From positions 1 through 35,789 of the forward strand of contig JAWSUI010000039.1 in the NCBI GenBank assembly GCA_033551855.1: a stretch of DNA of 35,789 bases, written 5' to 3'. The translations under genes and the position numbers were made by a program. Source of the stretch: Deferrisomatales bacterium (GTDB taxonomy: Bacteria > Desulfobacterota > Deferrisomatia > Deferrisomatales > JACRMM01). This document shows, in pieces, positions 77 to 20,138 of the stretch; position 1 is the first letter of the stretch, and the number at the start of each line of letters is the position of its first letter. A model generated the notes under the pieces. The model had not been told where the DNA came from. It did no database searches and was given only the letters and a program-made list of their open reading frames with translations.

Positions 77-2973
<2,897 letters not shown>

Positions 2974-3033: not shown

Positions 3034-4246
<1,213 letters not shown>

Positions 4247-4268
4247 TTCACACGACCGCGAACTGGCG

Positions 4269-4583
4269 TCAGCCCGGCCACGCACGCGGGGGTCTTCGCC
4301 GACCCCACGTGCCCGGCCGACGCGAGGTGTGTAGGACCGCCAACACTGTGACCACGTCGTTCTCGAACAGGTAGAAGATTGCGTAGGGGAAACGTCGGGT
4401 GAGAGCCCTCCTCACCGCGGCCCAGGCTCGGGGGTGGCGAAGCGGTTCCTCCGCAATCGCTTCCAGCGCCCGATCGACTGCCTCGACGAACTCGGTGCCG
4501 AGTCCTCTCCACTGGTCTTCGTACCAGCCTGCGGCCTCCGAGACATCCGCTTCGGCCTCGGGGCGGATCACCAACCGCGGCAT
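4269..4583 (-). CDS. RelE/ParE-family type II toxin
   Basis: 104 aa with the RelE/ParE plasmid-stabilisation pattern IRPEAEADV..WYE..GLG.EF..RRFPYAIFY..VLAVLHTSRRP..W. Its start overlaps the antitoxin stop. Confidence 0.9.
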   Translation of the reverse strand: MPRLVIRPEAEADVSEAAGWYEDQWRGLGTEFVEAVDRALEAIAEEPLRHPRAWAAVRRALTRRFPYAIFYLFENDVVTVLAVLHTSRRPGTWGRRRPPRAWPG

Positions 4584-4804
4584 CAGAGGCTCGACAAGAT
4601 GCGCTTCTTCACTTCGGGCCAGGGCGATCCCTGTTCCGGGTTCTTCTCGTAGGCGGCCAGGCGGCGATCGATCTCCTCCGACTGCTCACGTGTCAGTTCC
4701 ACGGCTTCCGGCACTTCGACGACGCTGTCCCAGATCTCCTGGGCCAGACGAATGCGGTCCGGTACGCTGAGCCGCAGAACGTCGGCAACTGTCACGGTCG
4801 GCAT
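4583..4804 (-). CDS. Addiction-module antitoxin (TIGR02574-like)
   Basis: 73 aa, LSVPDRIRLAQEIWDSV..EIDRRLAAY..P..GSPWPEVK. Directly upstream of and coupled to the toxin. Confidence 0.88.
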   Translation of the reverse strand: MPTVTVADVLRLSVPDRIRLAQEIWDSVVEVPEAVELTREQSEEIDRRLAAYEKNPEQGSPWPEVKKRILSSL

Positions 4805-4910: not shown

Positions 4911-5597
4911 TCATACCCGCCGAATCAGCATCAGCCCACACCCGAAGCCCTTGGCAGGGCCAATGCCATCTCGGAGTTGTTCAACAAAACGGATCGGGTC
5001 GACGACCTCGAGCACTCCGGCGAAGTCCACCGTGCTGAGGCGCACAGGGCTGCCCCCCTTCTTCCAGAACTCGTGCTGGCGGTAACTGTCGGCTCGCACG
5101 CTCTCGACCCGAAAGCCGCCCTTCTCGGCCCTCTCACCGAGCCACCTTCCGCTGGCCTCCTGCACGAGCTCCGCCTCCGTGGGCCACTCGCCTCGGGCGA
5201 CGCCCTTGGTCTTGAGGCGATACTTGGCCTCCATGACGACGTCGTGGCGCTTTCGTTTCTTCGGGTTCGGATCCGGGGTTTCGGGTCTCCGCGTCACGAC
5301 GGGATTCGCGCGCAGTTGAAAGCCGAGGAGCATGCCTGCGCACAGGCGGGGGGCGAACGGCTTGCTCTCGGCCTGCCAGAGCTCGCTGCCCTCGGCCAGC
5401 GGCCGGGCGGACAGGGCGTAGACCACCGGCGGCCCGGCGCCCTCGGTCACCTGGTACAGGAAGTCCCGCTCGCGGTCCGGGTGGTCGCCAAACAGCCCCC
5501 ACACCGCTTTGTGTAGCGAGTAGGAACTTCGAAATGCGCTCCAGAACGCGCCTGCCCGCCCGGCGTCGGGGCGGACGGTGATCCGGCTGAAGAACAT
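4911..5597 (-). CDS. cas6e: Cas6e (Cse3) crRNA-processing endoribonuclease
   Basis: YSLHKAVWGLF, RDFLY, FQLRANPV and the glycine-rich C-terminal GIGPAKGFGCGLMLI. Confidence 0.96.
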   Translation of the reverse strand: MFFSRITVRPDAGRAGAFWSAFRSSYSLHKAVWGLFGDHPDRERDFLYQVTEGAGPPVVYALSARPLAEGSELWQAESKPFAPRLCAGMLLGFQLRANPVVTRRPETPDPNPKKRKRHDVVMEAKYRLKTKGVARGEWPTEAELVQEASGRWLGERAEKGGFRVESVRADSYRQHEFWKKGGSPVRLSTVDFAGVLEVVDPIRFVEQLRDGIGPAKGFGCGLMLIRRV

Positions 5598-5600
5598 GGC

Positions 5601-6341
5601 TCACCCCTCCTCGGTCAGCGGCGCGTGGTGCTCGCGGCGGACGTCGAACTGCCATCGGCGGCGAGACAGCGGCACGTCCCGGCGTTCGAAGGTGTGGCGG
5701 GGTTCCAGCCCGGCCTCGGCGCCGTCCTCCCAGTACAGCGCCGGCGACCCCGAGGCGGGCAACTGGCCCACACCCTCGACCTCGGCGAACCGCGCCGCCT
5801 CGAACGCCGCCCGGATCGAGGTCGCGCCCACGACCTGTGGTTCCAGCGGCAGGGCCAGGGGGCAAGACTTCCGGCCCAGGTAGAGCACGTACCCGGGCCG
5901 CTCCAGGGCGTCGCGGATCGTCCCCAGGGGGAAGGGGGCATCATGCGCCCTGACCCAGAGCGCGACGGCGGTGACGGCGTCCATCCGGTAGTCGCGGCGG
6001 GACAGGATGGTGTTCAGGGCTTCGCGCCGCAGCGTGCACAACTCGTCTCGCCGTGTGGCGAAGGTCCTCCGGTTCCTGCCAGTTCCCGACGGCGGCACCT
6101 GTACCGTATGGTAGTCCACCAGGGGCACGCCCATGCTGTCCACCCGTACGGCGAAGCCGTAGCCCCGGGCCAGGGCGTGGTGCGTGGCCTCCTGCTCCCG
6201 GTCGACCCGGAGGGCCGCGGCCACCAATCCCAATATGGCGGACTTGGAGGGGTGGGTAGCGCTCGGCCGCACCTCGCCCACGGCGATGTCGCCCCAGGAA
6301 GCCAGGGGGCCGTAGAGTCGGAAGACGAGGTAGTCCGTCAT
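5601..6341 (-). CDS. cas5: Cas5e (CasD)
   Basis: YLVFRLYGPLASWG, PSKSAILGLVAAAL, DYHTVQ, YLGRKSCP. Confidence 0.96.
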   Translation of the reverse strand: MTDYLVFRLYGPLASWGDIAVGEVRPSATHPSKSAILGLVAAALRVDREQEATHHALARGYGFAVRVDSMGVPLVDYHTVQVPPSGTGRNRRTFATRRDELCTLRREALNTILSRRDYRMDAVTAVALWVRAHDAPFPLGTIRDALERPGYVLYLGRKSCPLALPLEPQVVGATSIRAAFEAARFAEVEGVGQLPASGSPALYWEDGAEAGLEPRHTFERRDVPLSRRRWQFDVRREHHAPLTEEG

Positions 6342-7588
6342 GCCGGGTCCTTCTTCTCGGGCAGCGGCTCGGCCACGAAGTCGAGGAGCTCCGCAAGACT
6401 TCCCTCGCCCGTCGCCGCGTTCATCACGCAGGGGGGCACGTCGCTCAAGGCTCCGTAGACCTTGTCCATGTTCACTCGGGTGTCTTCAAGGACCTTGATC
6501 GCGCCGCCCAGCATGTCCTGGCCGGTCACGGGCTTCAGGAAAGCGACCGACAGGGACCGGGGTTGGCGCGTGCCTTTCTCGGCCAGGATGTACGAGGCGT
6601 AGGCGCGAGAGGCGAAGCTGTTCTGCTTGCCCGTGGGCGCCACGGTCGCGGCAGCCTCGGCCAACGCTTTCAATGTCCGCCGGGTCAGATCCTTCTCGTC
6701 CTGGAGGTTCTCGAGGAGAAGGTCCCGGTCGATGCAGACGTAGAGGTAGAAGAGACCGGCTGCGAACTCGGTCTCCCCGATGTGGCCGGCGCCCACGTCC
6801 TCGGCCCCGCTGTTCAGGTCGTCCACCGCGGTGAAGTAGTCGTCCTCGACGGCGACCTTGTGGACGGTGATGGCATGCGCTACTTGGGCAGCAGCCTCGA
6901 CATTCTTGGCCGGAGACGCGGCCAGCATTCGTCCGAACATGGCTAGATCCGCGTCGGTGTGCCTGTCCTTGGCAAGGTTCTTAATCTCTTCCTGAGCTGG
7001 GAGCTTGCGATCCTTGAGAACCCGCTTCACTAGGTTGGCGATGGCCTGGATCTCCAAAGTTGAGCAGAAGACGAGTTGCTCGCTCATGAGCGTGTCTCTG
7101 CTGACATTGCTCTTGGACTCGTCCTTCTTGCCCTTCTTCTTTCCCTTCTTGGCGTCTGGCTTCTCCTCATCTTCTGCTTCCATCTCTTCGTCGTCCGGTT
7201 CTTCGCCTTCCTTGCGAGGCTTGTCCACGAAGGCTGCCGCTATCGACCAGGCCAGGTCTCTTGCCTCGGCTTCAGCTAGGCGGCTTGATCCTGCCGGAGG
7301 TTGAGGAAAGGGCGGCAACGCCTCTCTGACCAAGTCGGACAACTCCTCTCCGGTTTGGAGTGCTCGGAACACGCAGGTACCAAGTCGTTTAGTACGCACC
7401 CCCAAGTGTCCCGACAGTGCCTCGCGTAGGGCGTCGGACGTTCTCCACGCGCGCTTCAGGCTCTGCGACGAGATTCGAAGCCGCTTCGCGCCCCCCATCA
7501 TCGCGGTCTTGGGCCGGCCGAGGTCGTCTCGGTTCAGGTTGGCCGGAGGATAGCTCGTTAGCAGATGAAGCTGGATGAAGGTGCTCAT
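6338..7588 (-). CDS. cas7: Cas7 (Cse4/CasC) backbone subunit with a charged insertion
   Basis: FIQLHLLTSYPPANLNRDDLGRPK, RISSQSLKRAWR, AMFGRMLA, DDYFTAVDD, PTGKQNSFA. Confidence 0.97.
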   Translation of the reverse strand: MSTFIQLHLLTSYPPANLNRDDLGRPKTAMMGGAKRLRISSQSLKRAWRTSDALREALSGHLGVRTKRLGTCVFRALQTGEELSDLVREALPPFPQPPAGSSRLAEAEARDLAWSIAAAFVDKPRKEGEEPDDEEMEAEDEEKPDAKKGKKKGKKDESKSNVSRDTLMSEQLVFCSTLEIQAIANLVKRVLKDRKLPAQEEIKNLAKDRHTDADLAMFGRMLAASPAKNVEAAAQVAHAITVHKVAVEDDYFTAVDDLNSGAEDVGAGHIGETEFAAGLFYLYVCIDRDLLLENLQDEKDLTRRTLKALAEAAATVAPTGKQNSFASRAYASYILAEKGTRQPRSLSVAFLKPVTGQDMLGGAIKVLEDTRVNMDKVYGALSDVPPCVMNAATGEGSLAELLDFVAEPLPEKKDPA

Positions 7589-7603
7589 GTTGTGTTTCCT
7601 CCT

Positions 7604-8128
7604 CTACTTTTCAGAAGGCATCTTGGCGTAATAGGCATAGGCCCAATCACGTTTGCTTTTTTCGTTCCACCAGAATACTGCGTTAGCTAAGCTGACCAGA
7701 TTGACGCGCCTATCAAGCAGTCTGACAACCCGAATCAGGAGTGGATAGAGTTCGTTGACGTCAGAGACCTCAAGAAGCCGCCGAAAGCGAAGGCCTCCCA
7801 CTTTGGCGTTCTTAGAGCCGGGAGCCTTCCGCGCCGCCATTTGCTCCGCGAATGAAGCGCCCTCCTCGTTAGTCTTGACGTGAGCCGCGAGCCCAGCGAT
7901 CGCAGCTAGGTTTGTGGCTCGTTCTGCGTTTGGCGAATCATCTTCCGGGAGAAGTCGGCTCAGGAGCCGATGGAAGCACGGACTGAAGGTCACCTCAGTC
8001 GGCGTAGCCGCCCGCCGCAACTCCGCCCTGCCGCCCCGGTCTTGATCCATACCCTTCCACCAGACCAAGAGGACTCTTGAAGACTCAGCGCCCTGGGCAA
8101 ACATCCGGTTTCGCTCGCTCTCAGACAT
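7604..8128 (-). CDS. cse2: Cas11 (Cse2/CasB) small subunit
   Basis: WW...DRGGRAELRRA, LRFRRLL, WAYAYY, located between cas8e and cas7. Start taken as MSESE at 8128, which overlaps the cas8e stop. Confidence 0.92.
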   Translation of the reverse strand: MSESERNRMFAQGAESSRVLLVWWKGMDQDRGGRAELRRAATPTEVTFSPCFHRLLSRLLPEDDSPNAERATNLAAIAGLAAHVKTNEEGASFAEQMAARKAPGSKNAKVGGLRFRRLLEVSDVNELYPLLIRVVRLLDRRVNLVSLANAVFWWNEKSKRDWAYAYYAKMPSEK

Positions 8129-9797
8129 TTTGTGTCTTCCCTCCTTTCTGCCGCGTCTTTCCCTTCGGCTTGTCGGGCAGCCCCAAGGTTTGTTTGAACT
8201 TCTTGCTCTGAATGGTCTTCTGCAGTGCCCGCCAGGAAAGGGCAATCCTCTTTGGGTCTGCGGCGTCAAAGTCCCCTGTCTGAGACAGATCATTGAAGAT
8301 GCTCTCCGCGGTTGCACCGAGAAACCGTCCCCATCGCTCCAAGACGGGTGCTATTTCTTCCGACGCGTCGAGCTTCGCACCCATCTCTCGAATTGACTCA
8401 AAGAACATCGCTTCTGTGAGCTGCCAAAACCGCTGATCTATGAACTTCAGGTTGCCTCGCACCTTAGTTCTTGAGTTGAACATGGCTTTCTTTATATTAT
8501 CTCGTGTTGCTTTGGCGATGAGTTCGGCGGCTTTGACCAGCGAAACCACATGGTATTCGCAGGAAGAACGGTGCTCCTCGGGGCAGCCCAGAATTGGCAT
8601 AGTGCTCTCGTACCAGCAACAGGCTTTCTTGTTGGACATCTGGTAGCCAAAGGCCCACAGGCGGACGTCGCCGTCCTTCCGAGCCAGTGCCCATCCCACC
8701 ACTGCTGAGGGCTCTCGAACCAATTTTGGTTTCCCTGGCGTCTCGGATTCAATCTTGACGCCCTGGACCAAACCAAGCCAATGCCGATATCCGACACCAC
8801 CCGCCTCCGGGTGCACAGGAAGAAACGCCCCTCCATCTTTGGAATAGTAGGGCGACAGGGGATGCTTCCATGGGCCTTCGTAGCTGATACCTTGGTCCTT
8901 GGCCCAATAGCCTTTTGTCCCCTTTGCATCCGGCTCGCCACAGAGGTCACACGCATTCCCGCAAGGAGCGGCAGCAAAGACGAGCCGTATTCTGCGAGGC
9001 ATGGCCCAGAACACTTGGTGTGGGTGGCAATCCTCGGGGGTCAGGGTGCGGTCTCCAGGTACACCACTCTTGGCCATCCAAGGGAAGGTGTCGGCACAAT
9101 CGTCCTTCTCTGGGTTTCCCGTCGAAGCAAGGAACGAGTCGTCCGTCAGCACGTTTTCCCAACATGTCCGCCACAACGTGGCCGGACTCTCGTGGTTGCC
9201 GGAGACCACCAGAGTCGTCAAAGGACCGCCGCCGCGAATCCCGGTGAAGTACCCTCGGCCACCTAGCGGCGCATTGGTCTGCAGAGTAAAGAGCGCTACG
9301 GCCGAGCAGGCTCGGCACAGGAAGCCGATCCCGCCTCGCTTCACAAAATGGTCCGTGTTGTCGCGAAGTGTCTTTCCGGTTGGGACCTCAATGAGTAGGC
9401 CGCACACAGGGAGGAGATCCCCCACCAGCTTCGATGCACCGTTGTCTTCAGGCGAGACCACTCCGTCACGGCCCACCGCGAGATCCTGAAGAAACCTGTG
9501 TTCACCCTTGTCCAGCGAGAATGCCTCGGCGATCGTCTGGAAGCGTGCTCGAAGTTCGGCTTCAGGTGGGGGTTGTCGGATGCGACGCCACCATTCGCCC
9601 CACGTCTCGGGGGGGAACGCCGTCTGAAGCAGTCCAATCAGGAACTGCACCAGCGCCCCGTTGAAATCCGGCCGGGGTGCGGCAGGCCCCACGAACGGGT
9701 CTTCCGCGAACCCATCCGTGAGTTGCCACGGCGAGATTCGCTCTACTTTGCCGCTCCGGCGGCGGGCTGGAATCCAGGCGTCTTCGATGAGATTCAT
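8121..9797 (-). CDS. cas8e: Cas8e (Cse1/CasA) large subunit
   Basis: MNLIEDAWIP start, PRPDFNGALVQFLIGLLQT, NTDHFVKRG, CxxC..ALFTLQTNAP..RGGGPLTTL, FWAMPRRIRL, CDLCG, WKHPLSPY. ATGA overlap with cas3. Confidence 0.95.
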   Translation of the reverse strand: MNLIEDAWIPARRRSGKVERISPWQLTDGFAEDPFVGPAAPRPDFNGALVQFLIGLLQTAFPPETWGEWWRRIRQPPPEAELRARFQTIAEAFSLDKGEHRFLQDLAVGRDGVVSPEDNGASKLVGDLLPVCGLLIEVPTGKTLRDNTDHFVKRGGIGFLCRACSAVALFTLQTNAPLGGRGYFTGIRGGGPLTTLVVSGNHESPATLWRTCWENVLTDDSFLASTGNPEKDDCADTFPWMAKSGVPGDRTLTPEDCHPHQVFWAMPRRIRLVFAAAPCGNACDLCGEPDAKGTKGYWAKDQGISYEGPWKHPLSPYYSKDGGAFLPVHPEAGGVGYRHWLGLVQGVKIESETPGKPKLVREPSAVVGWALARKDGDVRLWAFGYQMSNKKACCWYESTMPILGCPEEHRSSCEYHVVSLVKAAELIAKATRDNIKKAMFNSRTKVRGNLKFIDQRFWQLTEAMFFESIREMGAKLDASEEIAPVLERWGRFLGATAESIFNDLSQTGDFDAADPKRIALSWRALQKTIQSKKFKQTLGLPDKPKGKTRQKGGKTQNV

Positions 9798-12535
9798 GGG
9801 GTGTCTCCTCCCAGGTACTGGAGCCCAAATCGGGCATCGTAGCGCACGCGGACCGATCGGCCATTCCCATCGACGGCGCTTCCGACGTGGCCGTCCGACG
9901 TTTCCTCCAGGACCACCACCACGCAGTGCTTGCCCCGGTCGGGCATGGATTCCCTCGCGGCGGAAAGTGCCTCTTCTGGCAGATTGGCCGCCTCGGCGGA
10001 GATCCGGGTCCGCCGGACGGTGAGCTGGGAGAGCTGCCAGGCGTGGCGGGGATCTCCGGAGGCCCAGGGTCCCAGGCGGGCTCCTTCCCGGCGGGCCAAG
10101 CGAACCGTGGTGGTGGGGTCGCCCAGGCGCGTGGGCGCGTAGGCGTCGTCTTGCCATTGAGCGTCCTTGGCCGGGTCAAAGTATCCAGCATCAAGGTTGA
10201 GGCTGTTTAGCCGCCCCTGGGCAGACTTCGCCTTGCCTGAGCCCTCGGCCCGCAGGGTCCGCGTGGCCAGCCCCGGCGGGATGTCGTCCTGGACGTCGCT
10301 GCCGTACACCGCCTCGATCATGTTGCGGGCGTCCTCGGGCGTCGAAAAGCCCAGCCGCTCCCGCAGCCAACGGGCGGTGAGCCAGAGTTGGCCGTGATTC
10401 TCATACACCCACGCGGCCCTGGGAAAGGCGCCAGAAAACCAGCGGGCGTCGACCTCGGCCGTGGGCTCGGGCAGGAAGACGCCAAGCTCCGGCGGAGAAC
10501 GCCGGTCGCGGCCCTCGACGCGGTTGCCGGCGGCGTCCCGGGCGTGGCGCTTCAAGCGCCCGGTCCGTTGAATCAGGAGGTCGATGGGCGCAAGGTCGGA
10601 GATCATGCCGTCGAAGTCGAGGTCCAGCGACTGCTCGACGACTTGGGTGGCGATGAGCAGCCGGCCGCCGCGCTCGGCGGCCGAGCTCTCTGGACCAAAC
10701 ACCCGCAGAACCTCGGACTCCCGCGCGAGCCGGTCGCCCAGGGTGAAGCGGGCGTGAAAGAGGGTGACCCGGTCCTCGCCGAGCCGTTCTGCCCACGCAC
10801 GGTAGGCCTCCAGGGCGTCGTCCACGGTGTTTCGCACCCAGCAGGCGCAGCCTCCCGCCTCCAGCACCCGGGAGAGCATGGAGGCGACGTCCTCCTCGGA
10901 GTGGAGCAGGGGCACCGCCACGCGTCTGCGCGCGTTCGGCCTCGCTTCGATCGGGTGCTCTCGGAGCCCCTCGGCGGTGAGGTACGTCACGAGGGGGTAG
11001 GCTGTGTCCCGGAGGATCGGCCGATCGACGCCAAGCCCGTCCCCGAAGGCCCGGACCAGCTCGGCACGCGTCCGGGCGGGAAGGGTGGCCGAGAGGAGCA
11101 CGGCGCTCCCGCCGAGCGCCGCGTGGAAGCGGAGCAGGGTGCACAGGAGTTGGTTCACGTAGGCGTCGCAGGCGTGCACCTCGTCGACGACCAGCACCTT
11201 GCGGCACAGCCCGAAGAGTCGCAGGGACTGGTGGCGCGCCGCCAGTACCGCGAGCAGGGCCTGGTCGATGGTGCCCACGCCCACCTGGGCCAGGAGCGCC
11301 TTCTTCCGACTGTCGGCAAGCCAGTCGGCGCACTGGCGGGAGGCAGTCTCCTCTGCGCCGTCGGGAGCCCGAGACGCCCGGTTCTTCTCCTCCAGGTCCA
11401 GGGCCATGCGGCTCGCGCTGTGGGCCAGGACGAGGGACGCCTCGGGTCCGTCGCCGAAGAGGCCGCGGAACATCTTCTCTACGCGGCGGTGCATGGCGTT
11501 GGCCGTCGCCATGGTGGGCAGCGCGAAGTACACGCCGTCGGCGGCCCCCCGCGCCATCAGGCGGTGAGCGAGGGCCAGGGCGGCCTCCGTCTTCCCGCCT
11601 CCCGTGACCTCTTCCACGACGAAGACCTGCGGGTAGTCGGAGAGTTCCAGACGTTCGGCGAACCCTTGGAGAGGGGTAGGGACTTCGATCGCGGGGAAGA
11701 GACTGCGAAGGCCCTTCCAGGCCGACGGCTGCACGGCCGGAACGCCGCTCTCGGCCACCGCCGTCCGGGCCTGGGGCAGGGCGTGGTTGCGCCAGTAGTC
11801 CTCCAGGGGCATCGGCTCGTCCACGTAGGGGAACCACGCCTCGTTGGAGCCGATCCAGTCGGCGGCCACGGCAAGCCCCGCTGCGAGCCACGATACCCGG
11901 GGGAACGCGCGGCGGTACCGGTCGTAGTCGGTCAGGTCGAAGGGCACCCCGTCGCCCGAGAACAGGGAGAATACGTCTCGAACGAAGGCCGCCGCGTCGG
12001 CGCGAACCGCAGGGGGAAACTGGTGCGAGAGCGGCTTCGGCCAGCCGCGGAGCGCCGGGGGACGCCCGTGGTGACCGGCCGAGGCCGCGAGCCAGGGAAG
12101 GAGGAGCTCGCGAAGGTCTTCCGGATCGAGCCGTCCGGCCTCGTTCCCTGCCAGCACGTCCAGGGGCCTCGGACTGCCGTCCTTCGCGGTCAGCAGGCGG
12201 AAACCGAGCGTGTCGTGCCGCTCGTCATAGCCCGCGCTGGACGTTCGGCCCTGCAACTCTGCCAAGAGGTCCGGGCGCAAGTTCTGGAACCCGTCGCCGA
12301 GCTTGCCGACGTCGTGGGCGGCCAGGAGGGCGACGAGCCACCGCCGCAGGGCGTCTGCCTCGACGCCAAGGAACTCCGCCACCCCAGCAACGAGGGACGG
12401 CTGTGCCCTCAGAAGCTCGTCGCCAGCCGCTGCCACGTCCAGGCAGTGGTACGGCAGCATGTGGTACCTCGGCCCCTCGCCCTCGGTCCTCGCCTTGCCC
12501 CAGTACCGGAAGTACGAGCCGTGGCTGCTGCTCAT
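9794..12535 (-). CDS. cas3: Cas3 HD nuclease/SF2 helicase
   Basis: HD-domain motifs YHCLDV, HDVGK, GHHG and ADWIGS. Helicase motifs TGGGKTE, DEVH, SAT and QVVEQSLDLDFD..QRTGRL.RH. Start MSSSH at 12535. Confidence 0.97.
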   Translation of the reverse strand: MSSSHGSYFRYWGKARTEGEGPRYHMLPYHCLDVAAAGDELLRAQPSLVAGVAEFLGVEADALRRWLVALLAAHDVGKLGDGFQNLRPDLLAELQGRTSSAGYDERHDTLGFRLLTAKDGSPRPLDVLAGNEAGRLDPEDLRELLLPWLAASAGHHGRPPALRGWPKPLSHQFPPAVRADAAAFVRDVFSLFSGDGVPFDLTDYDRYRRAFPRVSWLAAGLAVAADWIGSNEAWFPYVDEPMPLEDYWRNHALPQARTAVAESGVPAVQPSAWKGLRSLFPAIEVPTPLQGFAERLELSDYPQVFVVEEVTGGGKTEAALALAHRLMARGAADGVYFALPTMATANAMHRRVEKMFRGLFGDGPEASLVLAHSASRMALDLEEKNRASRAPDGAEETASRQCADWLADSRKKALLAQVGVGTIDQALLAVLAARHQSLRLFGLCRKVLVVDEVHACDAYVNQLLCTLLRFHAALGGSAVLLSATLPARTRAELVRAFGDGLGVDRPILRDTAYPLVTYLTAEGLREHPIEARPNARRRVAVPLLHSEEDVASMLSRVLEAGGCACWVRNTVDDALEAYRAWAERLGEDRVTLFHARFTLGDRLARESEVLRVFGPESSAAERGGRLLIATQVVEQSLDLDFDGMISDLAPIDLLIQRTGRLKRHARDAAGNRVEGRDRRSPPELGVFLPEPTAEVDARWFSGAFPRAAWVYENHGQLWLTARWLRERLGFSTPEDARNMIEAVYGSDVQDDIPPGLATRTLRAEGSGKAKSAQGRLNSLNLDAGYFDPAKDAQWQDDAYAPTRLGDPTTTVRLARREGARLGPWASGDPRHAWQLSQLTVRRTRISAEAANLPEEALSAARESMPDRGKHCVVVVLEETSDGHVGSAVDGNGRSVRVRYDARFGLQYLGGDTP

Positions 12536-13137
12536 CCCATCACCCCCAGCTCCCGCAGCCGGAAGAAGCACCGGGCGCACGCCCGCACGTCGGCCAGGGA
12601 GGTGTGGGCGCCCTCGATACCCTTGCCGAAGAGCTTGCGGTGGAGCTGCTCGAGGGTGGGCCACTTGAAGCGGCCCCGCGCGCCGGGGATGCGGCAGTAG
12701 GCCGTGGATTCCTGCATGGTGCAGTGTGCGGGCCTTCGGAAGAAGGTGCGCTCGATGTCGGGCCGGGCATGGCCCAGGCGGTGGAGCTCCGCAGCGATGA
12801 CGTTTCGGTCGAAGTCCAGGTTGTGGGTGACGAGGGCGACGGAGGGCCCCTCGCCGTCGAGCGCAGCCAGAAACCGGCCCAGGGTGTCGGCAAGGGGCAG
12901 GCCTTCGGCCCTCGCCCGCTCCGTGGTGATCCCGTGCACCCGGACCGCATCGGCCGGGATGGCAAACCCCTCGGGGCGGATGAGGTGCTCTTCAGCAGCC
13001 GCTTCCCGACCGTCTTCCTCGACCACCGCCCAGGCGAGCTGGACGATGCGCGGCCAGTTGCGGGCGTGGGTGTAGGGGGCCCGGCGGTCGCGGGGGAAGC
13101 CGGTGGTCTCGGTGTCGAAGAACAGGAATCGGCTCAT
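12532..13137 (-). CDS. DEDDh (DnaQ-like) 3'-5' exonuclease
   Basis: ExoI FFDTETTG, VHGIT, ExoII THNLDFD and ExoIII AHTSLADV are all intact. Its stop overlaps the cas3 start (ATGA). Confidence 0.93.
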   Translation of the reverse strand: MSRFLFFDTETTGFPRDRRAPYTHARNWPRIVQLAWAVVEEDGREAAAEEHLIRPEGFAIPADAVRVHGITTERARAEGLPLADTLGRFLAALDGEGPSVALVTHNLDFDRNVIAAELHRLGHARPDIERTFFRRPAHCTMQESTAYCRIPGARGRFKWPTLEQLHRKLFGKGIEGAHTSLADVRACARCFFRLRELGVMG

Positions 13138-13191
13138 GCGGTCTCCCGAGGGGAAGGCGGCGGCCGGCGTGCCTCTCTTTCTATCACGGCG

Positions 13192-13214
13192 GGTGGCTCA
13201 GGGAGTGAGCCACC
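13192..13214. promoter_or_regulatory. Perfect inverted repeat GGTGGCTCA-N5-TGAGCCACC, candidate WYL-regulator operator
   Basis: 9-bp arms with a 5-bp spacer between the WYL gene and the exonuclease-cas3 operon. It sits just upstream of a TGnTAGAAA extended -10-like element on the minus strand and has no U-tract. Confidence 0.6.
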
Positions 13215-13220
13215 GGCGGA

Positions 13221-14186
13221 CTATTTCTCCCGGTAGAGCGCGGCGGCGGCCCGATGGAGATCGCCAACCCGGCGGCGTAGGTCCTCGGGTTCCAGGACCT
13301 CCACGTCGGGGCCGTATTTCAGGATGTCGAGGAGGAGCTCGCGGGGGTCGGAAAAGGGGACGGTGAGCTCGTAGGCGCCGTCCACCCACCGGCCGCACTG
13401 CTCGGGGTGCCAGACCTCGTCGGCCACCCAGCGGGCCCTCTCGGCGGAGAACCGCAACACGGCTCGGGCGGTCGGCGCTCCGGAGAAGATGCCGAAGCTC
13501 GCGTCGAGGTAGGCGTCGAGGTCGGCTTCAGGCACGGGTGCGAAGGGCGGCGCGGCGGGTCTGGCGTGTCGGATGCGGTCGAGCGAGAAGACGCGCAGCT
13601 CGCGGGCCGCCTCGCACCAGGCCAGGAGGTACCAGTTGTCCCGGTAGTGCAGGAGGCACTGGGGGTGGACGCGGCGGCGGGTCGCGTCGCCCCGGGTGCG
13701 GCCGTGGTACTCCAGATCGAGAGGCCTGGGTTCCAGCACGGCCTGGGCCACCGCAGCGAACCGCTCGGGGTGCGTCCGGCGCCGTGCAGCCGGCACGATG
13801 CGGACCCGGGAGACGACGGCCTCGGCGGGGTGACCGGCCCGGGAGAGGATGTCCCTCACCCGGGCCAAGAGCGGGCCGAGGTAAGGGGTGAGGATGCCGG
13901 GCTGCACCTGCTCCAGGAGGCGGGCGCTCGCGAGCAGGGCGTAGAGCTCGCTCTCGTTGAGCCAGAAGCCGGGAAGCTCGAAGGCTTCGGCCCGGGGATC
14001 GTACCGGTAGCCGTTGGCTTCCCGCTCGTAGGTGACCGGGGCCCCGAAGAAGTCGCGCAGGTATCGGAGATCGCGCACCACGGTGGCGCGGGAGGTTTCG
14101 AGGCGTCCGACGAAGTCGGCCATGCTTACGGGACGCCTGCCGCCGAGCAGGGCGTGGAGGCGGCAGAGGCGTTCCGCCCGGTTCAT
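13221..14186 (-). CDS. HTH-WYL-WCX transcriptional regulator (YafY/PafC/DriD-like)
   Basis: N-terminal wHTH (MNRAERL..LETSRATVVRDLRYLRD), WYL domain (RRVHPQCLLHYRDNWYLLAWC..RVFSLDRI) and WCX domain (ILKYGPDVEVLEPEDLR). Confidence 0.94.
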   Translation of the reverse strand: MNRAERLCRLHALLGGRRPVSMADFVGRLETSRATVVRDLRYLRDFFGAPVTYEREANGYRYDPRAEAFELPGFWLNESELYALLASARLLEQVQPGILTPYLGPLLARVRDILSRAGHPAEAVVSRVRIVPAARRRTHPERFAAVAQAVLEPRPLDLEYHGRTRGDATRRRVHPQCLLHYRDNWYLLAWCEAARELRVFSLDRIRHARPAAPPFAPVPEADLDAYLDASFGIFSGAPTARAVLRFSAERARWVADEVWHPEQCGRWVDGAYELTVPFSDPRELLLDILKYGPDVEVLEPEDLRRRVGDLHRAAAALYREK

Positions 14187-14392: not shown

Positions 14393-16312
14393 TCAGTCGT
14401 CCTCCCCGGCGGGGAGAATCCCCCGCTCGCGGAAGTCGTCGGCGACCTCGTCCAGGGAGAGGCGGCGAAGCGTCTCTTCCGTGGGGATGCCCTCGGCGTT
14501 CCAGCCCTTGAGCTCGTAGTACGCATCCAGGAGCGTGGTTTCCATCTCGGGGTCCCGGTGCTTCCAGTGGTCGGCGGGGGGAGCCTCGTCACGGCGGCGG
14601 AGGCCCCGCCGGACGTTGAGCGCCCTCACCAGGTTCCGGTTGCGCGCCGCCACTTCCCAAAGCCCGTCGGAATCGATGTCCAGGCCGCTCGCCAGGGAGA
14701 TGAACTCCGGGAGGTTGTAGAGGTGGTACGGCGGCCGGCCGCCGAACTGTCCTCGGAAGGACGAAAGGAACGCGCAGGTGCCCAAGGCGTCGTCCACGTA
14801 GTGCATCGTCTCGTTCCAGTCGCAGATGTTGATCGCCGCCTCTACCGAAGGGTGTTGTTTGGGCTCCCACTCCATCAGGTATTTCTTGAACCGCTCCGGA
14901 GCCGCCTCCCAGTTGGCCACGAATCGCTCTCGCTCCTCGATGTCCTCGATCGGCTGCTGCGGGAAGGACCCCTCGATCTGCGTGATATTCATCTTCTCGC
15001 CGGTGGCGTACATCAGGAAGTACGGGTAGTTGATCATCCCGAGCTTGATCGGAACCTGCTCGAACTTCTTCATGGTATTGTGGTCGAAGGCCTCGGCCCC
15101 CTTGCCGATCTGGCGCGCCGCCCAGTAGACGCCGTTGGCCAGCACGTCTCCGATGCCATCCCTGCGGACGACCTTCTCCACGAGGTAGAAGAACCGTTCG
15201 GCTCCCTTTGCAGGAAAGCCGGGGAGATCCTGATCCGTCAGGATGCCTGCCTCGTAGAGCTCGACGGCAAACGCGAGGACCTGAGGCGTAGAATAACCGT
15301 CGAGGCCGTATTCCTGCGTGACGCCGAGAATGTCGTAGTCGAAATCCAGCTCTTCGAACGCCGCCATGGCATAGGTGAGCTTGCTGTAGCACTTCTGGAA
15401 GTAAGGGCGGCGCCCCGGATACCGGATGGCCTGGTGGCACCCCTTGGCACAGTTGTAACAGCCGACCCAACGGGCTCGGATGCTTTCTTCCAGCGCCTTC
15501 CAGCGATCTTCTCGTTCCTTGTTCCAGTACCCCCTCATGCGGGTGCGCGCGTTGCCCCAAGCGAAGTTCTCCACGTGGAACTCGTCGCCTTCCCCGTGGG
15601 CCATGGAATCCCCGCAGTGGGGGTTGTCGCGGATCTCCATCTGCATCCGCAGGCACTTCTCCATGAGCTCGCTCGGCCGGGCGACGTTGACGTCCCTCGT
15701 GCCCCGCACGGCGATGGCCTTCAACCGCTTGTCGCCCATGATGACGCCGACCCCGCGGGAGGCGCTGGCGACGTCGTGCTCGATCGAGGCCATGAAGACC
15801 CGGTTCTCGCCGGCCAGGCCGATGGCGGCGACCTGGGCGTCGGGCTCCCGCAGCTCTTCCCGTATCCTGTCGGCGGTCTCGAGGGCCCCCCTCCCGCTCA
15901 GATGCCGGGCGTCGCGGATCTCGACCCGGTCGTCGTGAATGTGCAGGTAGACCAGTCCCGAGGCCCTTCCCCGAATCACGAGCTTGTCGTAGCCCGCATG
16001 CTTCATCTCCGGCCCGAAGTACCCCCCGAAGACCGAGTGGGAGTATCGGTCGGTCTGGGGCGAGAAGGTGTCGACGAACGTGCGGTTCGCCCCAGGGACC
16101 GGCGTGCCGTGCAGGAGCCCCGTGCTGAAGATCAGCAGGTTGTCGGTGGAGAACGGTGTGAGCTCGGGCTGCACGCGCTCCCACAGGATCTTCGCCGCCG
16201 TGCCCTGCCCCCCCAGGTGCCGGCGCATCCCGTCTGGGTCGGTCTCCACTCTCTCGATATTGCCGGTGGAGAGGTCGATCTCGAGTTGAAACCCGGTCTC
16301 CGCGTAACGCAT
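14393..16312 (-). CDS. bamB: BamB-like tungsten enzyme (class II benzoyl-CoA reductase active-site subunit homolog, AOR family)
   Basis: MRYAETG..EIDL start, FHVENFAWGNARTR, CYNCAKGC Fe-S motif, KCYSKLTY (metal-ligand Cys), GEKMNITQIEG and MHYVDDALG all follow Geobacter BamB as I recall it. Looks like a divergent paralog. Confidence 0.8.
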   Translation of the reverse strand: MRYAETGFQLEIDLSTGNIERVETDPDGMRRHLGGQGTAAKILWERVQPELTPFSTDNLLIFSTGLLHGTPVPGANRTFVDTFSPQTDRYSHSVFGGYFGPEMKHAGYDKLVIRGRASGLVYLHIHDDRVEIRDARHLSGRGALETADRIREELREPDAQVAAIGLAGENRVFMASIEHDVASASRGVGVIMGDKRLKAIAVRGTRDVNVARPSELMEKCLRMQMEIRDNPHCGDSMAHGEGDEFHVENFAWGNARTRMRGYWNKEREDRWKALEESIRARWVGCYNCAKGCHQAIRYPGRRPYFQKCYSKLTYAMAAFEELDFDYDILGVTQEYGLDGYSTPQVLAFAVELYEAGILTDQDLPGFPAKGAERFFYLVEKVVRRDGIGDVLANGVYWAARQIGKGAEAFDHNTMKKFEQVPIKLGMINYPYFLMYATGEKMNITQIEGSFPQQPIEDIEERERFVANWEAAPERFKKYLMEWEPKQHPSVEAAINICDWNETMHYVDDALGTCAFLSSFRGQFGGRPPYHLYNLPEFISLASGLDIDSDGLWEVAARNRNLVRALNVRRGLRRRDEAPPADHWKHRDPEMETTLLDAYYELKGWNAEGIPTEETLRRLSLDEVADDFRERGILPAGEDD

Positions 16313-16323
16313 GGCGCCCCCGA

Positions 16324-18531
16324 TCAGCCCTCGTCCGCCTTGTAGACCTTGCAGAGCAGCCCCCGCAGCGGCCAGCCGCCGCTGATGGGGTTGCAGACCT
16401 CGGGATCGTCGTCGGTGAGGACGTTGCAGTTCGATTTCCACACCCCATGCAGGGACGGCTCGGCGCCCTCCTCCTCGGGGAACCACCAGCCGTGCTGGAC
16501 GTGGACCACCCGGGGGTCGATCCCTTCGAACAGGCGGCATTTTTGCCGGATCCTGCCCCGGGGCGACTCGATCCAGACCCAGTCGTCGTTGCCGATGCCG
16601 AGCCCCGCCGCAGTCTCCGGGTGGAGCTGCACGATGGGATCCGGGTGCATCTTGCGCAGCGAGGCGTTCTGCCGGTGCTCGGAGTGGTAATACGGCTGGT
16701 GCCGTCCGCCGGTGATGAGGATGAAGGGGTACTCGGCCGCCAGGTCCGGCCGGCTCACGGGGCTTTCGGCGGGCTCGCGGAAGTCGGGCAGGGGATCGTA
16801 CCCCAGGGACTCGAGCACGGTGGAGTACAGCTCGACCTTCCCCGTCGCCGTGCCGAACCCTGTCTTCTCGTACCGCTTGGGCTCCTTCTTGGCGCCCATG
16901 TGCCCACCGCGGGCCATGAACTCCGAGAAGGTGAGGCCCAGGGGTTTGAGCCGGTAGTCGTAGACGTCTTCCAGGGTTTCCCAGGGCCAGTCCTCCGGGC
17001 TCTGGCCGACCTGGAGACCCAGGCCCCTCCAGATGTCGTAGTCGTCGCGGCGGTCGTAGGCGCCGGGCACCATCTTGGGAAGGGCGCGCTCCCCCCCGAC
17101 GATGCCCGAGTACGCCCAGATCCACGGGCGCTCCAGGTACGTCGTGGCCGGCAAGACGTAGTCCGCCAACTGGGCGCTGGGGGTCATGAAGAAGTCCGCC
17201 ACCACGTAGAGATCCAGCTTCTTGAGCGCCCGGTGGACCAGCTTGGTGTTGGGCGCCGTCACCATGGGATTGCTCGACAGGGTGATCATGCCCCGCACCG
17301 GGTAGGGTTCGTCCGTGAGGATGGCCCGGTAGATGGTCGGCCCGTGGGCGTAGACCTCGTAGGAGCTGCGGGCGTGGGCCTCGCGGCCCCACACCCTGGC
17401 CACGGCGTCCTGCACCCGGTCGAAGCCCTGGCGCGAGAAGAACCGGAAGCGCTCGATCCCGAGCGTCTTCTCGATCTGCCCCGGGGGCAGCCGGTCGTGG
17501 GCGGCGATCTCCTGCTCGTGGATGAAGCCCGGCATGGGCGTGGTGAACACGTCCCCACCCTTCTCCTCCAGGTGCCCGCACAGGGCCGCCAGGGCGAAGT
17601 GAGCGTGCAGGGTCTCGATCACCGTGGCTTGGTGCTCCAGGCCCATGCCGTGGCTGGAGGCGGCGGGCCGGAGGGTGGCATACCACTCGGCGGCCTGGCG
17701 AATCTGGTCCGCCGGGAGCCAGGTGATCTCGCTGACCTTTTCGACGGGGTACCGGGCCGCCCGCTCCCGCAGCTCGTCGAAGCCGTGGCACCAACGGGAG
17801 ACGAAATCCTTGTCGTAGAGCTCCTTTTCGATGATGTGGTGGATCATCCCCAGAGCGAGGGCGACGTCGGTTCCGGGGCGGAGTTGGAGCCACAGGTCCG
17901 CGTGCCGGGTGGAGTCGATTCCCCGGGGGTCGATGACGATGATCTTGGCGCCGTTTTCCTGCCGGGCCTTCTTGGCCGCCTGCCAGAACACGTCCCAATA
18001 CCGGGGCCCCCCGCCCCCCCACAGGAGCACGCACTGGGTTTCCGCCCGCACCACGGGGAACACCCGCCACCCGAAGATGGTGTGACTCATGGCGCAGAAG
18101 GGCCCGTAACAGATCTGTCCGGCGCCGGTGTGATTGGGGGTGCCCAGCAGGTTCAGGAACCGCTGTCGGATCTCGTCGTGGGTCCGGCCCGTGCCGCTCG
18201 TGCAGGCGATGGTCTCCGCCCCGTAGCGGTCCACGAGCTGCCGCATCTTGCCTCCGATCTCGGCGAGGGCCTCGTCCCACGAGATCGCCTGCCATCGGTT
18301 TTCTCCCCGGGCGCCGACCCTCCGCAGGGGGTAGTTGAGCCGTTTCGGGTGGTTGAAGTACTCCAGCACGTGCCGACGCCGGGGGCACGCCTTGGTGATG
18401 GGGTACGAAGACCGGGTGCCGGGGAAGCCCTCGTCCGGCTCCACGGCCACCAGGCACCCGTCCTCCACCGTGGCCGCCAGCCGGCAGCCGTTGTGGCACT
18501 GGATGCAGATGACCTTCTTGACTTCTGCCAT
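16324..18531 (-). CDS. Mo/W-bis-PGD oxidoreductase, acetylene hydratase-like clade of the DMSO reductase family
   Basis: CxxCHxxC..C Fe-S motif, RLNYPLRRVGARGENRW..ISWDEAL, LLGTPN..QIC ligand, HSEHRQ and HGWWFPE. Start at 18531 has an AGGAG SD; 18567 is an alternative that overlaps the upstream stop. No Tat signal. Confidence 0.9.
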   Translation of the reverse strand: MAEVKKVICIQCHNGCRLAATVEDGCLVAVEPDEGFPGTRSSYPITKACPRRRHVLEYFNHPKRLNYPLRRVGARGENRWQAISWDEALAEIGGKMRQLVDRYGAETIACTSGTGRTHDEIRQRFLNLLGTPNHTGAGQICYGPFCAMSHTIFGWRVFPVVRAETQCVLLWGGGGPRYWDVFWQAAKKARQENGAKIIVIDPRGIDSTRHADLWLQLRPGTDVALALGMIHHIIEKELYDKDFVSRWCHGFDELRERAARYPVEKVSEITWLPADQIRQAAEWYATLRPAASSHGMGLEHQATVIETLHAHFALAALCGHLEEKGGDVFTTPMPGFIHEQEIAAHDRLPPGQIEKTLGIERFRFFSRQGFDRVQDAVARVWGREAHARSSYEVYAHGPTIYRAILTDEPYPVRGMITLSSNPMVTAPNTKLVHRALKKLDLYVVADFFMTPSAQLADYVLPATTYLERPWIWAYSGIVGGERALPKMVPGAYDRRDDYDIWRGLGLQVGQSPEDWPWETLEDVYDYRLKPLGLTFSEFMARGGHMGAKKEPKRYEKTGFGTATGKVELYSTVLESLGYDPLPDFREPAESPVSRPDLAAEYPFILITGGRHQPYYHSEHRQNASLRKMHPDPIVQLHPETAAGLGIGNDDWVWIESPRGRIRQKCRLFEGIDPRVVHVQHGWWFPEEEGAEPSLHGVWKSNCNVLTDDDPEVCNPISGGWPLRGLLCKVYKADEG

Positions 18532-18563
18532 GGAGGGCTCCTCTATGACCCTGGAAGGGTCCG

Positions 18564-20138
18564 TCATTCAGAGCGTTTCGCCTGGGCGTCCGCCTGCCGC
18601 AGCTTGAAGCGCTGCAGCTTTCCCGTGGCCGTCTTCGGAAGCTCCGACACGTACTCGATCCACCGCGGGTACTTGTACGGAGCGATCCTGTCCTTGACGA
18701 ACTGCTGGAGCTCCCCGGTGAGCTCGGGAGACGGCGTCCACCCGCTGCGCAGGACCACATACGCTTTGGGTTTGACCAGGCTCTGCGGGTCGGGCGAGCC
18801 GATCACACCGCACTCGGCCACGGCCGGGTGGAGGCCCAGTGTCGCCTCGACCTCGATGGGAGCGACCCAGATCCCACCGCTCTTGATCATGTCGTCGCCC
18901 CGGCCGGCGAACCAGAACCGGCCCTCCTCGTCCCGGGAGAACTTGTCGCCGGTCTTCACCCACTCCCCCAGGAACGTGCGCTGGGAGAGCTCGTGCTTGT
19001 TCCAGTAGCCCGCCGCCACGAAGCCCGCCCGAACCAGCACGTTCCCGATCTCGCCCGGCCCCACGTCGGCTCCGTCTTCATCCGCGAGCCGTACACCCAC
19101 CCCCGGCAAGGGCCTTCCGGTGGAGCCCGGGGTGATCTCCTCCGGGCGGTTCGAGATGAAGATGTGGTAGCACTCGGTGGCGCCGATGCCGTCGACGATG
19201 TCGAGGTTCCAGGCCGCCTTCCATCCCTCCTGCACGGCCGGGGGGAGAGCCTCGCCGGCAGACAGGCAGAGACGAACCGAGCGAAAGTCGAACGCTTCCG
19301 TAAAGCGAGGAAGGGCCAGCATGGCGTTGTACGCCGTGGGAACGCCGCAGAAGACCGTGGGGCGCTCGCGGGTGACGAGCTCGGCGATGGTGTCCGGTTC
19401 GGGGCGGTCCGGCATCAGGATCGTCGTGGCGCCTGCACCGAAGGGGAGATACAGGGAGTTGCCCTGTCCGTAGCCGAAGAAGAGCTTGGCCACGGACAGG
19501 AAGCGGTCGTCCTCGGTGATCCCGAGCAGGGCATGCGCATAGCTCTCGAAGTGGCACAGGATGTTCCTGTGCATCTGCACGATGCCCTTGGGAACCCCCG
19601 TGGTCCCGGAGCTGTACTGCCAGACAGCCGAGTCATCCCGGCAGGTGTCGGCGGCCGAAAGCTCCTCACCCGCCGCCGCGACGAGGTCCCGGTAGGCCAG
19701 GTGCCCCCGCCCCCCCTCCCCGATGACGACCACGCGGCGAAGGTGGGCCAGGGTCGGACGCGCCGCCTCCACGGGTTCCAGCAGGGACTCGTGGACGATG
19801 GCGACCTTGGCTCGGCTGTCCCTCAGGATGTAGGCGATGTCCGCCGCCGGGAGGAGGGTGTTCGCCGCGATCGGCACGGCCCCGATCTTCATGCTCGCCA
19901 GCAGGCCGAAGACCAGCTCCGGGAGGTCGGGAGAGAGCAGGAAGACCCGGTTCTCGATCTCGACGCCCAGGCCTCGGAGGGCGTTGCCCAGACGGTTGAC
20001 CTCCCGCTGCACCTCCCGGTAGGTCCAGCTCTGTCCGCGGCACATCAGGGCCACCTTGTCCCCCCGGCCCTCGGCCAGGTGGCGGTCCAGCAGAAAGGTC
20101 GCCGCGTTGAACCGTTCGGGAATCTCGACGCTGTGCAT
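18564..20138 (-). CDS. Benzoate-CoA ligase family (aryl-CoA ligase)
   Basis: PERFNAA, YSSGTTGVPKG, AKLFFGYGQGN, SAGEALP, DGIGATE..HIFISN, APYKYPRWIE, LPKTATGKLQRFKLR. Confidence 0.92.
   Translation of the reverse strand: MHSVEIPERFNAATFLLDRHLAEGRGDKVALMCRGQSWTYREVQREVNRLGNALRGLGVEIENRVFLLSPDLPELVFGLLASMKIGAVPIAANTLLPAADIAYILRDSRAKVAIVHESLLEPVEAARPTLAHLRRVVVIGEGGRGHLAYRDLVAAAGEELSAADTCRDDSAVWQYSSGTTGVPKGIVQMHRNILCHFESYAHALLGITEDDRFLSVAKLFFGYGQGNSLYLPFGAGATTILMPDRPEPDTIAELVTRERPTVFCGVPTAYNAMLALPRFTEAFDFRSVRLCLSAGEALPPAVQEGWKAAWNLDIVDGIGATECYHIFISNRPEEITPGSTGRPLPGVGVRLADEDGADVGPGEIGNVLVRAGFVAAGYWNKHELSQRTFLGEWVKTGDKFSRDEEGRFWFAGRGDDMIKSGGIWVAPIEVEATLGLHPAVAECGVIGSPDPQSLVKPKAYVVLRSGWTPSPELTGELQQFVKDRIAPYKYPRWIEYVSELPKTATGKLQRFKLRQADAQAKRSE

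Follow-up and report, generated by a model that had tools for sequence, protein, structure and literature searches.

A WYL regulator gene followed by a conserved palindrome and -10-like element as a candidate portable switch ahead of type I cas operons

The window analysed here is the whole 35,789-nt stretch of contig JAWSUI010000039.1 (assembly GCA_033551855.1) from a Deferrisomatales bacterium, and our subject is the head of its type I-E CRISPR-Cas operon, where an HTH-WYL-WCX regulator gene, a palindrome and a stand-alone DEDDh exonuclease gene precede cas3. We propose that the WYL gene, with the palindrome and extended -10 element behind it, forms a portable module that stands ahead of I-C, I-E and I-G-like cas operons. 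Comparison of related loci brings out the co-occurrence of these parts, a fixed spacing between palindrome and -10-like element, the lack of a -35 consensus, a variable cargo and an exchange of regulator and palindrome among three genomes. From these we infer binding, activation, ligand and a trimming role: the palindrome, placed over the absent -35 element, is likely bound by the WYL dimer, which, probably upon sensing single-stranded DNA (ssDNA), would activate the DEDDh-cas3-Cascade transcript, the DEDDh gene being optional cargo whose product possibly trims prespacers in trans. We give this explanation as a whole a probability of roughly 0.62. The parts at the head of the operon are as follows; the WYL gene, the DEDDh gene and the cas operon are all encoded on the minus strand of the window.

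13221..14186, minus strand: HTH-WYL-WCX transcription regulator, 321 aa, predicted homodimeric activator (Pfam, PDB relatives, tree)
13220-13138, minus strand: 83-bp gap from WYL to DEDDh (sequence)
13192..13214, no strand: 9-5-9 palindrome, likely the WYL operator, with its core GGCTCA-N5-TGAGCC at 13195-13211 (comparison)
13178..13186, minus strand: extended -10-like element TG-A-TAGAAA, 11 nt past the operator core (homologous sites)
13143..13147, minus strand: GGGAG, ribosome-binding-site-like (sequence)
12532..13137, minus strand: stand-alone DEDDh 3'-5' exonuclease, 201 aa, optional accessory gene (Pfam, PADLOC, alignment, fold model)
9794..12535, minus strand: cas3, HD and helicase (profile matches)

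The stop codon of the DEDDh gene overlaps the cas3 start (ATGA, 12535-12532). An initial annotation made from the letters alone had named the HTH-WYL-WCX gene, the 83-bp gap, the perfect palindrome by a -10-like element, the intact DEDDh gene and this overlap, and all of these proved exact when checked by sequence, Pfam and alignment.

The palindrome in the window is a perfect 9-5-9 repeat that begins 6 nt past the WYL stop codon. Perfect palindromes with arms of at least 9 nt number three in the 32.8 kb outside the CRISPR array, so that the window palindrome alone is barely beyond chance, and chance therefore had to be excluded by comparison. WYL relatives were gathered from metagenomes (80 loci) and from the phylum. 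Of 83 loci with at least 39% identity, 36 have the core close to the 3' end of the WYL gene when up to 2 mismatches are allowed, a count that includes the window's own locus and near-duplicates; the core is found in none of 83 equal stretches inside the WYL gene and in 2 of 71 upstream of it. Judged by this conservation beside WYL relatives, the palindrome is real. Of the 32 distinct WYL relatives with at least 50% identity, 22 carry the core (at most 1 mismatch) within 1.2 kb past the stop, the remaining 10 having less than 1.2 kb of downstream DNA and being dropped from the tally, and at 39-50% identity it occurs within 1.2 kb in 15/36. Its position varies, the site lying 250-1100 nt from the WYL stop or overlapping the last codons. 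On these comparative grounds the palindrome goes with the WYL gene rather than with the exonuclease.

A palindrome that starts 6 nt past a stop codon and folds as a 9-bp stem could also be read as an RNA hairpin, a terminator or stabiliser ending the WYL transcript. The folding z-score is -0.5, the gap has no Rfam match, just 2 of 40 sites are followed by a run of at least 5 T, pairing of the flanks is not conserved, and the core is conserved in sequence and not via compensatory change; the site's varying distance from the stop codon argues in the same direction. We consider a hairpin extremely improbable.

Evidence for promoter function lies in the spacing on one side of the core. Of 40 distinct sites, 39 have a TA 10 or 11 nt past TGAGCC on the cas side, away from WYL; the same test applied to the other side finds 10. 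The hexamer so placed matches TATAAT at four or more positions in 35/39 sites (two matches being fixed by the selection on TA), and a TG extension precedes it in 28/39. The best -35 match reaches at most 2/6 in 36 of the 39. As no -35 consensus is present, no complete sigma-70 promoter is to be expected, and a sigma-70 scan found neither a complete promoter nor a terminator at the palindrome. The fixed 10-11 nt to the -10-like TA would put the operator centre at about -32, where a -35 element should be. DriD recruits polymerase from sites that overlap the -35 and keep a constant spacing to weak -10 elements (PMC12340889); SiwR is a local WYL activator that binds a palindrome upstream of a -10 (PMC10693628). 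The site in the window likely shares the DriD-type activator geometry, which would make the WYL protein a candidate activator rather than a repressor. The initial annotation had predicted the palindrome as WYL operator and left the direction of regulation open; the core kept behind WYL relatives and the fixed -10 spacing support the former by comparison, and the conserved geometry adds activation as the probable direction.

A repressor can likewise cover a -35 region, and this weighs against our explanation. The WYL protein could be of the CapW/BrxR type, sitting on the palindrome, blocking the promoter and releasing it upon binding ssDNA. CapW and BrxR are indeed defence-linked winged-HTH (wHTH)-WYL-WCX repressors acting on inverted repeats, the spacer of the BrxR R-BOX is also 5 bp (PMC9122601, PMC11662680), and an extended -10, as at the 28 sites noted above, could function without a -35. 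However, the -10 precedes R-BOX1, which in turn precedes brxR (PMC9122601), whereas here the site lies upstream of the -10 at the fixed distance and behind its regulator, and the best PDB matches of the WYL protein are the activator PafBC and PafC. Repression of this kind appears quite unlikely.

The 9-5-9 site is unique in its own genome up to 2 mismatches, and two 1-mismatch matches to core plus TA elsewhere in that genome are about at chance level by estimate. With the site single in its genome, the WYL regulator looks dedicated and not global. The exact motif with TA occurs in 121 stretches of viral contigs, a number estimated to lie within the chance range for so large a collection, and the short motif is thus of no diagnostic value by itself; the 80 of these stretches with DNA flanks examined gave no WYL, cas or DEDDh matches. 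In one locus, L188:5919-7149, a duplicated WYL 3' end (a WCX fragment) with a second operator flanks an MNT-HEPN pair before cas3.

What the module drives was tallied in distinct loci with at least 3 kb of downstream DNA, with and without the motif. Cas genes lie downstream in 17 of 18 motif loci versus 4 of 16 loci without it (Fisher p 4.5e-5, which is overstated since kin are not independent), and a Pfam tally finds cas genes in 19/20 motif loci, in I-C, I-E and I-G-like operons. The annotation's claim that WYL controls the cas operon is strengthened by this association, and we regard such control, with the palindrome as putative operator, as likely on comparative evidence. Two observations count against it: the four loci without the motif carry cas genes all the same, and on short contigs the genes that come after the motif are ARPP-1, HD_4 or HIRAN. 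The GGCTCA-type module of L223, L224 and L225 leads to ARPP-1, not cas, followed in L225 by an ADP-ribosylglycohydrolase.

Related genomes provide a natural exchange of the regulator. In the same-genus genome G001 the DEDDh protein is 89% and cas3 74% identical to those of the window, in the same-family genome G004 54% and 31%; in both the two genes overlap and the I-E operon is complete. Their WYL proteins belong to another clade, 36% identical to the window WYL and 60% to each other (branch support 100), and their palindromes, each different from the window's, are of the CA-N5-TG type and are followed by 11 nt and a -10-like hexamer. Similarity in blastn to the G001 locus (L133) ends at 13153, just upstream of the ribosome-binding site of the DEDDh gene. 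By parsimony, the window lineage likely replaced regulator, operator and promoter together, while the DEDDh gene stayed, the WYL gene was exchanged and cas3 changed lineage; that this swap rests on three genomes must be held against it. Another account would make these genes chance neighbours in a defence island, the WYL protein having no control of cas genes. WYL genes are common near defence genes, and the window WYL is not an ortholog of the WYL at the same position in the two relatives, but the replaced regulator arrived together with a palindrome and a -10 of its own, arranged alike, and motif and cas genes are strongly associated. We hold chance neighbourhood to be highly improbable.

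Several observations concern these same genomes. Between WYL and DEDDh, G001 (L133:10460-10801) and G004 (L134:9411-9722) carry a 114-aa Trp-rich open reading frame (ORF) without Pfam match, 77% identical between the two and not found in the window's genome. The window's own genome holds a second WYL gene on contig C113 (L138:36-3200), followed by the palindrome CTGACA-N5-TGTCAC, 10 nt and TATCCT; by eye, the ORFs downstream are ARPP-1-like and ADP-ribosylglycohydrolase-like. The same layout is found in G001 (L141), and in G004 (L140) a WYL gene is followed by a palindrome similar to that of L138.

The WYL protein matches the Pfam families WYL (E 5e-20) and WCX (E 2e-15) above cut-off and HTH_11 (E 6e-5) at 23.2 bits, slightly below the cut-off of 25, so that the wHTH-WYL-WCX architecture is present. 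Its PDB relatives are PafBC, PafC and other WYL proteins, with DriD-type entries matching only partially (E about 7e-8). Mapped by hand, R171, Y186, R198 and R204 correspond to PafB R181, Y196, R208 and R214 and are kept (4 of 6 PafB residues), but A194 and S201, likewise mapped by hand, stand at the positions of PafB R204 and R211. As those two arginines are implicated in ssDNA binding (PMC11804915), the ligand may differ, a further point against our explanation. DdaA is reported with Ala for the first of the two and is yet damage-responsive (PMC12392091). Since most of the PafB ssDNA residues are kept and DdaA responds to damage despite its Ala, ssDNA is, by analogy, the likeliest candidate inducer, with Cas3, RecBCD or phage replication as possible sources.

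In the WYL tree the window protein is sister to the ortholog of the same-family genome G005 (65%), within a group in which 20/20 carry the motif. In G005 the palindrome is present behind the WYL gene and there is no such DEDDh, on a contig that stops 340 nt further on. Named close WYL relatives, one of them in Thioalkalivibrio sulfidiphilus at about 60% identity, are mostly from sulfur-oxidising Gammaproteobacteria, which suggests that the gene moved horizontally; a plasmid search returned WYL relatives at no more than 44% over most of the length.

The slot between operator and cas3 holds HIRAN, pRiA4-ORF3, MNT-HEPN, DEDDh or nothing, and among close WYL relatives it more often holds one of the other three or is empty than holds DEDDh, which recurs there in one other locus only (L187, with a different DEDDh family). 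The dedicated WYL-DEDDh pair proposed in the annotation finds no support in this comparison. The pRiA4-ORF3 gene has the same stop/start overlap with cas3 in L151, and possibly in L154, so the DEDDh/cas3 overlap is no sign of special coupling, and the Cas3-specific coupling that had been read from it is likewise unsupported.

The DEDDh protein itself is well defined, with matches to RNase_T (E 7e-9) and to the PADLOC DEDDh profile (E 1.5e-26) and with an intact catalytic set, D8, E10, D110, H178 and D183 being invariant in 55 aligned relatives. An alignment-based model with a predicted local distance difference test score (pLDDT) of 95, which replaced a single-sequence fold of only pLDDT 45, matches the folds of ExoI, TREX1/2 and DnaQ, with the S. 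thermophilus DnaQ domain (8h2f) among the top matches. Of the 61 nearest genomes, three have the window-type DEDDh, always before cas3; in the tree these three cas-linked long proteins are paraphyletic, yet a single clade is not rejected (p-AU 0.70). A second, shorter DEDDh family, split from that of the window by a 100/100 branch, is found ahead of the cas3 gene in 6 of the 29 other cas3 loci of the phylum. In the 20 regions examined for its 21 matches it heads cas loci in nine (6 I-E, 1 I-Fv, 1 I-E cas3 remnant before I-C, 1 V-A), and seven of these nine sit behind a WYL gene. L286 reads WYL - short DEDDh - Bro-N - Cas12a (type V-A), then an ORF of at least 994 aa. In L290:5268-7970 a shortened I-E-type cas3, preceded by WYL - DEDDh - YhcG, stands directly ahead of a complete I-C operon, and this looks like one subtype replaced by another behind the same switch. 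An exonuclease gene may also stand ahead of cas3 in Geobacter sulfurreducens, though a literature search gave no confirmation.

Much of the distribution of these exonucleases speaks against a CRISPR role. The family of the window DEDDh is widespread (Bacteroidota, Patescibacteria, Verrucomicrobiota) and for the most part has no link to CRISPR: none of the 80 GTDB relatives (44-54%; 57 with at least 8 kb of DNA) and neither of 2 phylum relatives has WYL or cas genes, an array or the motif nearby. The annotation had asked whether the WYL-DEDDh pair is usually found without cas genes, and the 80 distant relatives, near neither WYL nor cas, go some way towards a yes. In the phylum, 23/29 other cas3 loci have no DEDDh in the 0.5-1.5 kb examined upstream, and 11/20 regions of the short family are without cas genes (four long ones clearly so, seven short ones at contig ends). 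The synteny check that had been suggested, for WYL-DEDDh-cas3, has a mixed outcome: the palindrome recurs, DEDDh next to WYL mostly does not, and seven regions show the order with the second family.

Subtypes I-E and I-F lack Cas4. The cas loci headed by the second DEDDh family are mostly I-E and I-F, and within motif loci DEDDh is present in 2/6 I-E-like versus 0/16 I-C/I-G-like operons (p 0.065, post hoc); together these sequence associations mildly favour prespacer trimming in trans by DEDDh. Trimming is still a tentative assignment, having no CRISPR role is an equally credible one, and clearing of ssDNA is unlikely. That last function is central to a different design, an integrated circuit of WYL and DEDDh as a dedicated pair in which the exonuclease, with Cas3, destroys the ssDNA inducer and shuts the operon off. 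The DEDDh model does resemble the ssDNA exonucleases ExoI and TREX, DEDDh would be the first transcribed gene, and the WYL-DEDDh-cas order recurs in the seven regions of the second family; a 3'-5' exonuclease, Cap18, is likewise part of a CapW-controlled operon of a cyclic-oligonucleotide-based antiphage signalling system, and its loss left protection unaffected (10.1101/2022.01.04.474952). Set against this, DEDDh occurs in just one other locus among close WYL relatives, it was retained while WYL was exchanged and the cas3 lineage changed, and overlap with cas3 is common to unrelated cargo. We judge the circuit very unlikely.

Several characterised systems resemble parts of this locus. DriD of Caulobacter crescentus is alike in being a homodimeric wHTH-WYL-WCX protein whose palindrome covers a poor -35 and keeps a constant spacing to a weak -10, the start site here being placed by comparison only; it differs in its site, ATACGAC-N7-GTCGTAT against GGCTCA-N5-TGAGCC, and in governing a chromosomal DNA-damage regulon (PMC12340889). 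SiwR of Mycobacterium smegmatis is a local, ssDNA-binding, homodimeric WYL activator of adjacent genes, but it drives DinB-like genes and not cas (PMC10693628). CapW and BrxR are WYL proteins of defence loci, some beside CRISPR-Cas, with inverted-repeat operators (PMC11662680, PMC9122601, 10.1101/2022.01.04.474952), and one CapW operon has the exonuclease Cap18 mentioned above; both differ as repressors, with the BrxR operator placed as already described. DdaA, from Moraxellaceae, comes closest in target: this WYL activator raises expression of CRISPR-Cas as well as restriction-modification systems, its knockout in Acinetobacter lowers cas transcription and interference, and its ancestor, according to its authors, regulated neighbouring genes (PMC12392091). 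The DdaA site CGWCA-N5-TGWCG shares a CA-N5-TG core with ours, and the first ssDNA-contact Arg is replaced in both, by Ala in DdaA and by Ser here (PMC12392091). Unlike the window regulator, which has one site per genome, directly behind its gene and with another half-site, DdaA is global, is encoded away from its targets and binds about 50 bp upstream of the start (PMC12392091), and its motif was found near 1 of 106 WYL loci examined and not near the window locus. Since the site sequences differ, the DdaA motif is near so few loci and no regulon is seen, the module, like DriD and SiwR in geometry and DdaA in target, is on sequence criteria filed under neither.

The exonuclease has its parallel in the Cas2-DEDDh trimmer-integrase, which shares the DEDDh fold and catalytic set in a Cas4-less I-E system (PMC10284694); the window DEDDh differs in being unfused, ahead of cas3 and from a mostly non-CRISPR family. 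Unfused exonucleases are expected to act likewise in trans, and stand-alone DEDDh proteins are described as widespread ancillary components of every CRISPR type (PMC10284694). PADLOC profiles already catalogue WYL regulators beside CRISPR loci and stand-alone DEDDh. To call the locus an undescribed system, as the initial annotation did, overstates the case, given that DdaA is already a published WYL activator of CRISPR-Cas (PMC12392091) and the ancillary nuclease is known (PMC10284694). Neither this operator nor a locally encoded WYL activator of cas3 operons was found in the literature listings searched, which did not extend to the DdaA supplementary figures; one of these, S4B, could already depict genes like DdaA next to cas operons, and the novelty would then be less.

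Downstream of cas3 the locus continues on the minus strand as follows.

4911..9797, minus strand: cas8e, cse2, cas7, cas5 and cas6e, the type I-E Cascade (profile matches)
4269..4804, minus strand: TIGR02574 antitoxin and ParE toxin pair, in the cas6e/cas1 interval (profile matches)
3034..4285, minus strand: cas1 and cas2 (profile matches)
77..2973, minus strand: CRISPR array with 48 identical 29-nt repeats (repeat analysis)

The type I-E set is complete (cas3, cas8e, cse2, cas7, cas5, cas6e, cas1, cas2e and an array with a 61-bp period). Cas2, at 106 aa, has no fused DEDDh domain, the DEDDh being a separate gene 9 kb away. Spacers are 32 nt long in 46/47 cases, a uniformity that is normal for I-E and says nothing about a trimmer. 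Two spacers are each present twice, and a search of the spacers against their own genome gave no full-length self-match (best 20/20 and 25/27 nt). The cas6e-cas1 interval is a second exchangeable cargo slot, with the TIGR02574-ParE pair here, DUF433-DUF5615 (PIN-like) in the same-genus genome (L133:1871-2511) and a 349-aa ORF in L134:17684-18733. Upstream neighbours at 14393-20138 encode an aldehyde:ferredoxin oxidoreductase, a molybdopterin oxidoreductase and an AMP-binding enzyme, and are unrelated to the defence locus.

The way type I CRISPR operons are turned on when a cell is infected or its DNA damaged is, to our knowledge, known in few organisms. In principle, both WYL activation of CRISPR and ancillary DEDDh are already published, and the gain here is one of scope and detail: an operator consensus with promoter geometry, a regulator-operator swap and an exonuclease slot filled twice. 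By supplying an operator consensus, a promoter position and a natural regulator-operator swap, the locus makes local WYL activation of cas testable, and two stand-alone DEDDh families can be named as candidates for the unfused prespacer trimmers anticipated in PMC10284694. A bolder idea, which we think somewhat unlikely, is that the WYL gene and operator are a plug-in switch making any downstream type I cas operon ssDNA-inducible, that clades with their own operators swap whole, and that the first slot has twice been filled by unrelated DEDDh trimmers for Cas4-less systems. If true, a cell under damage or infection would turn on interference together with accurate acquisition.

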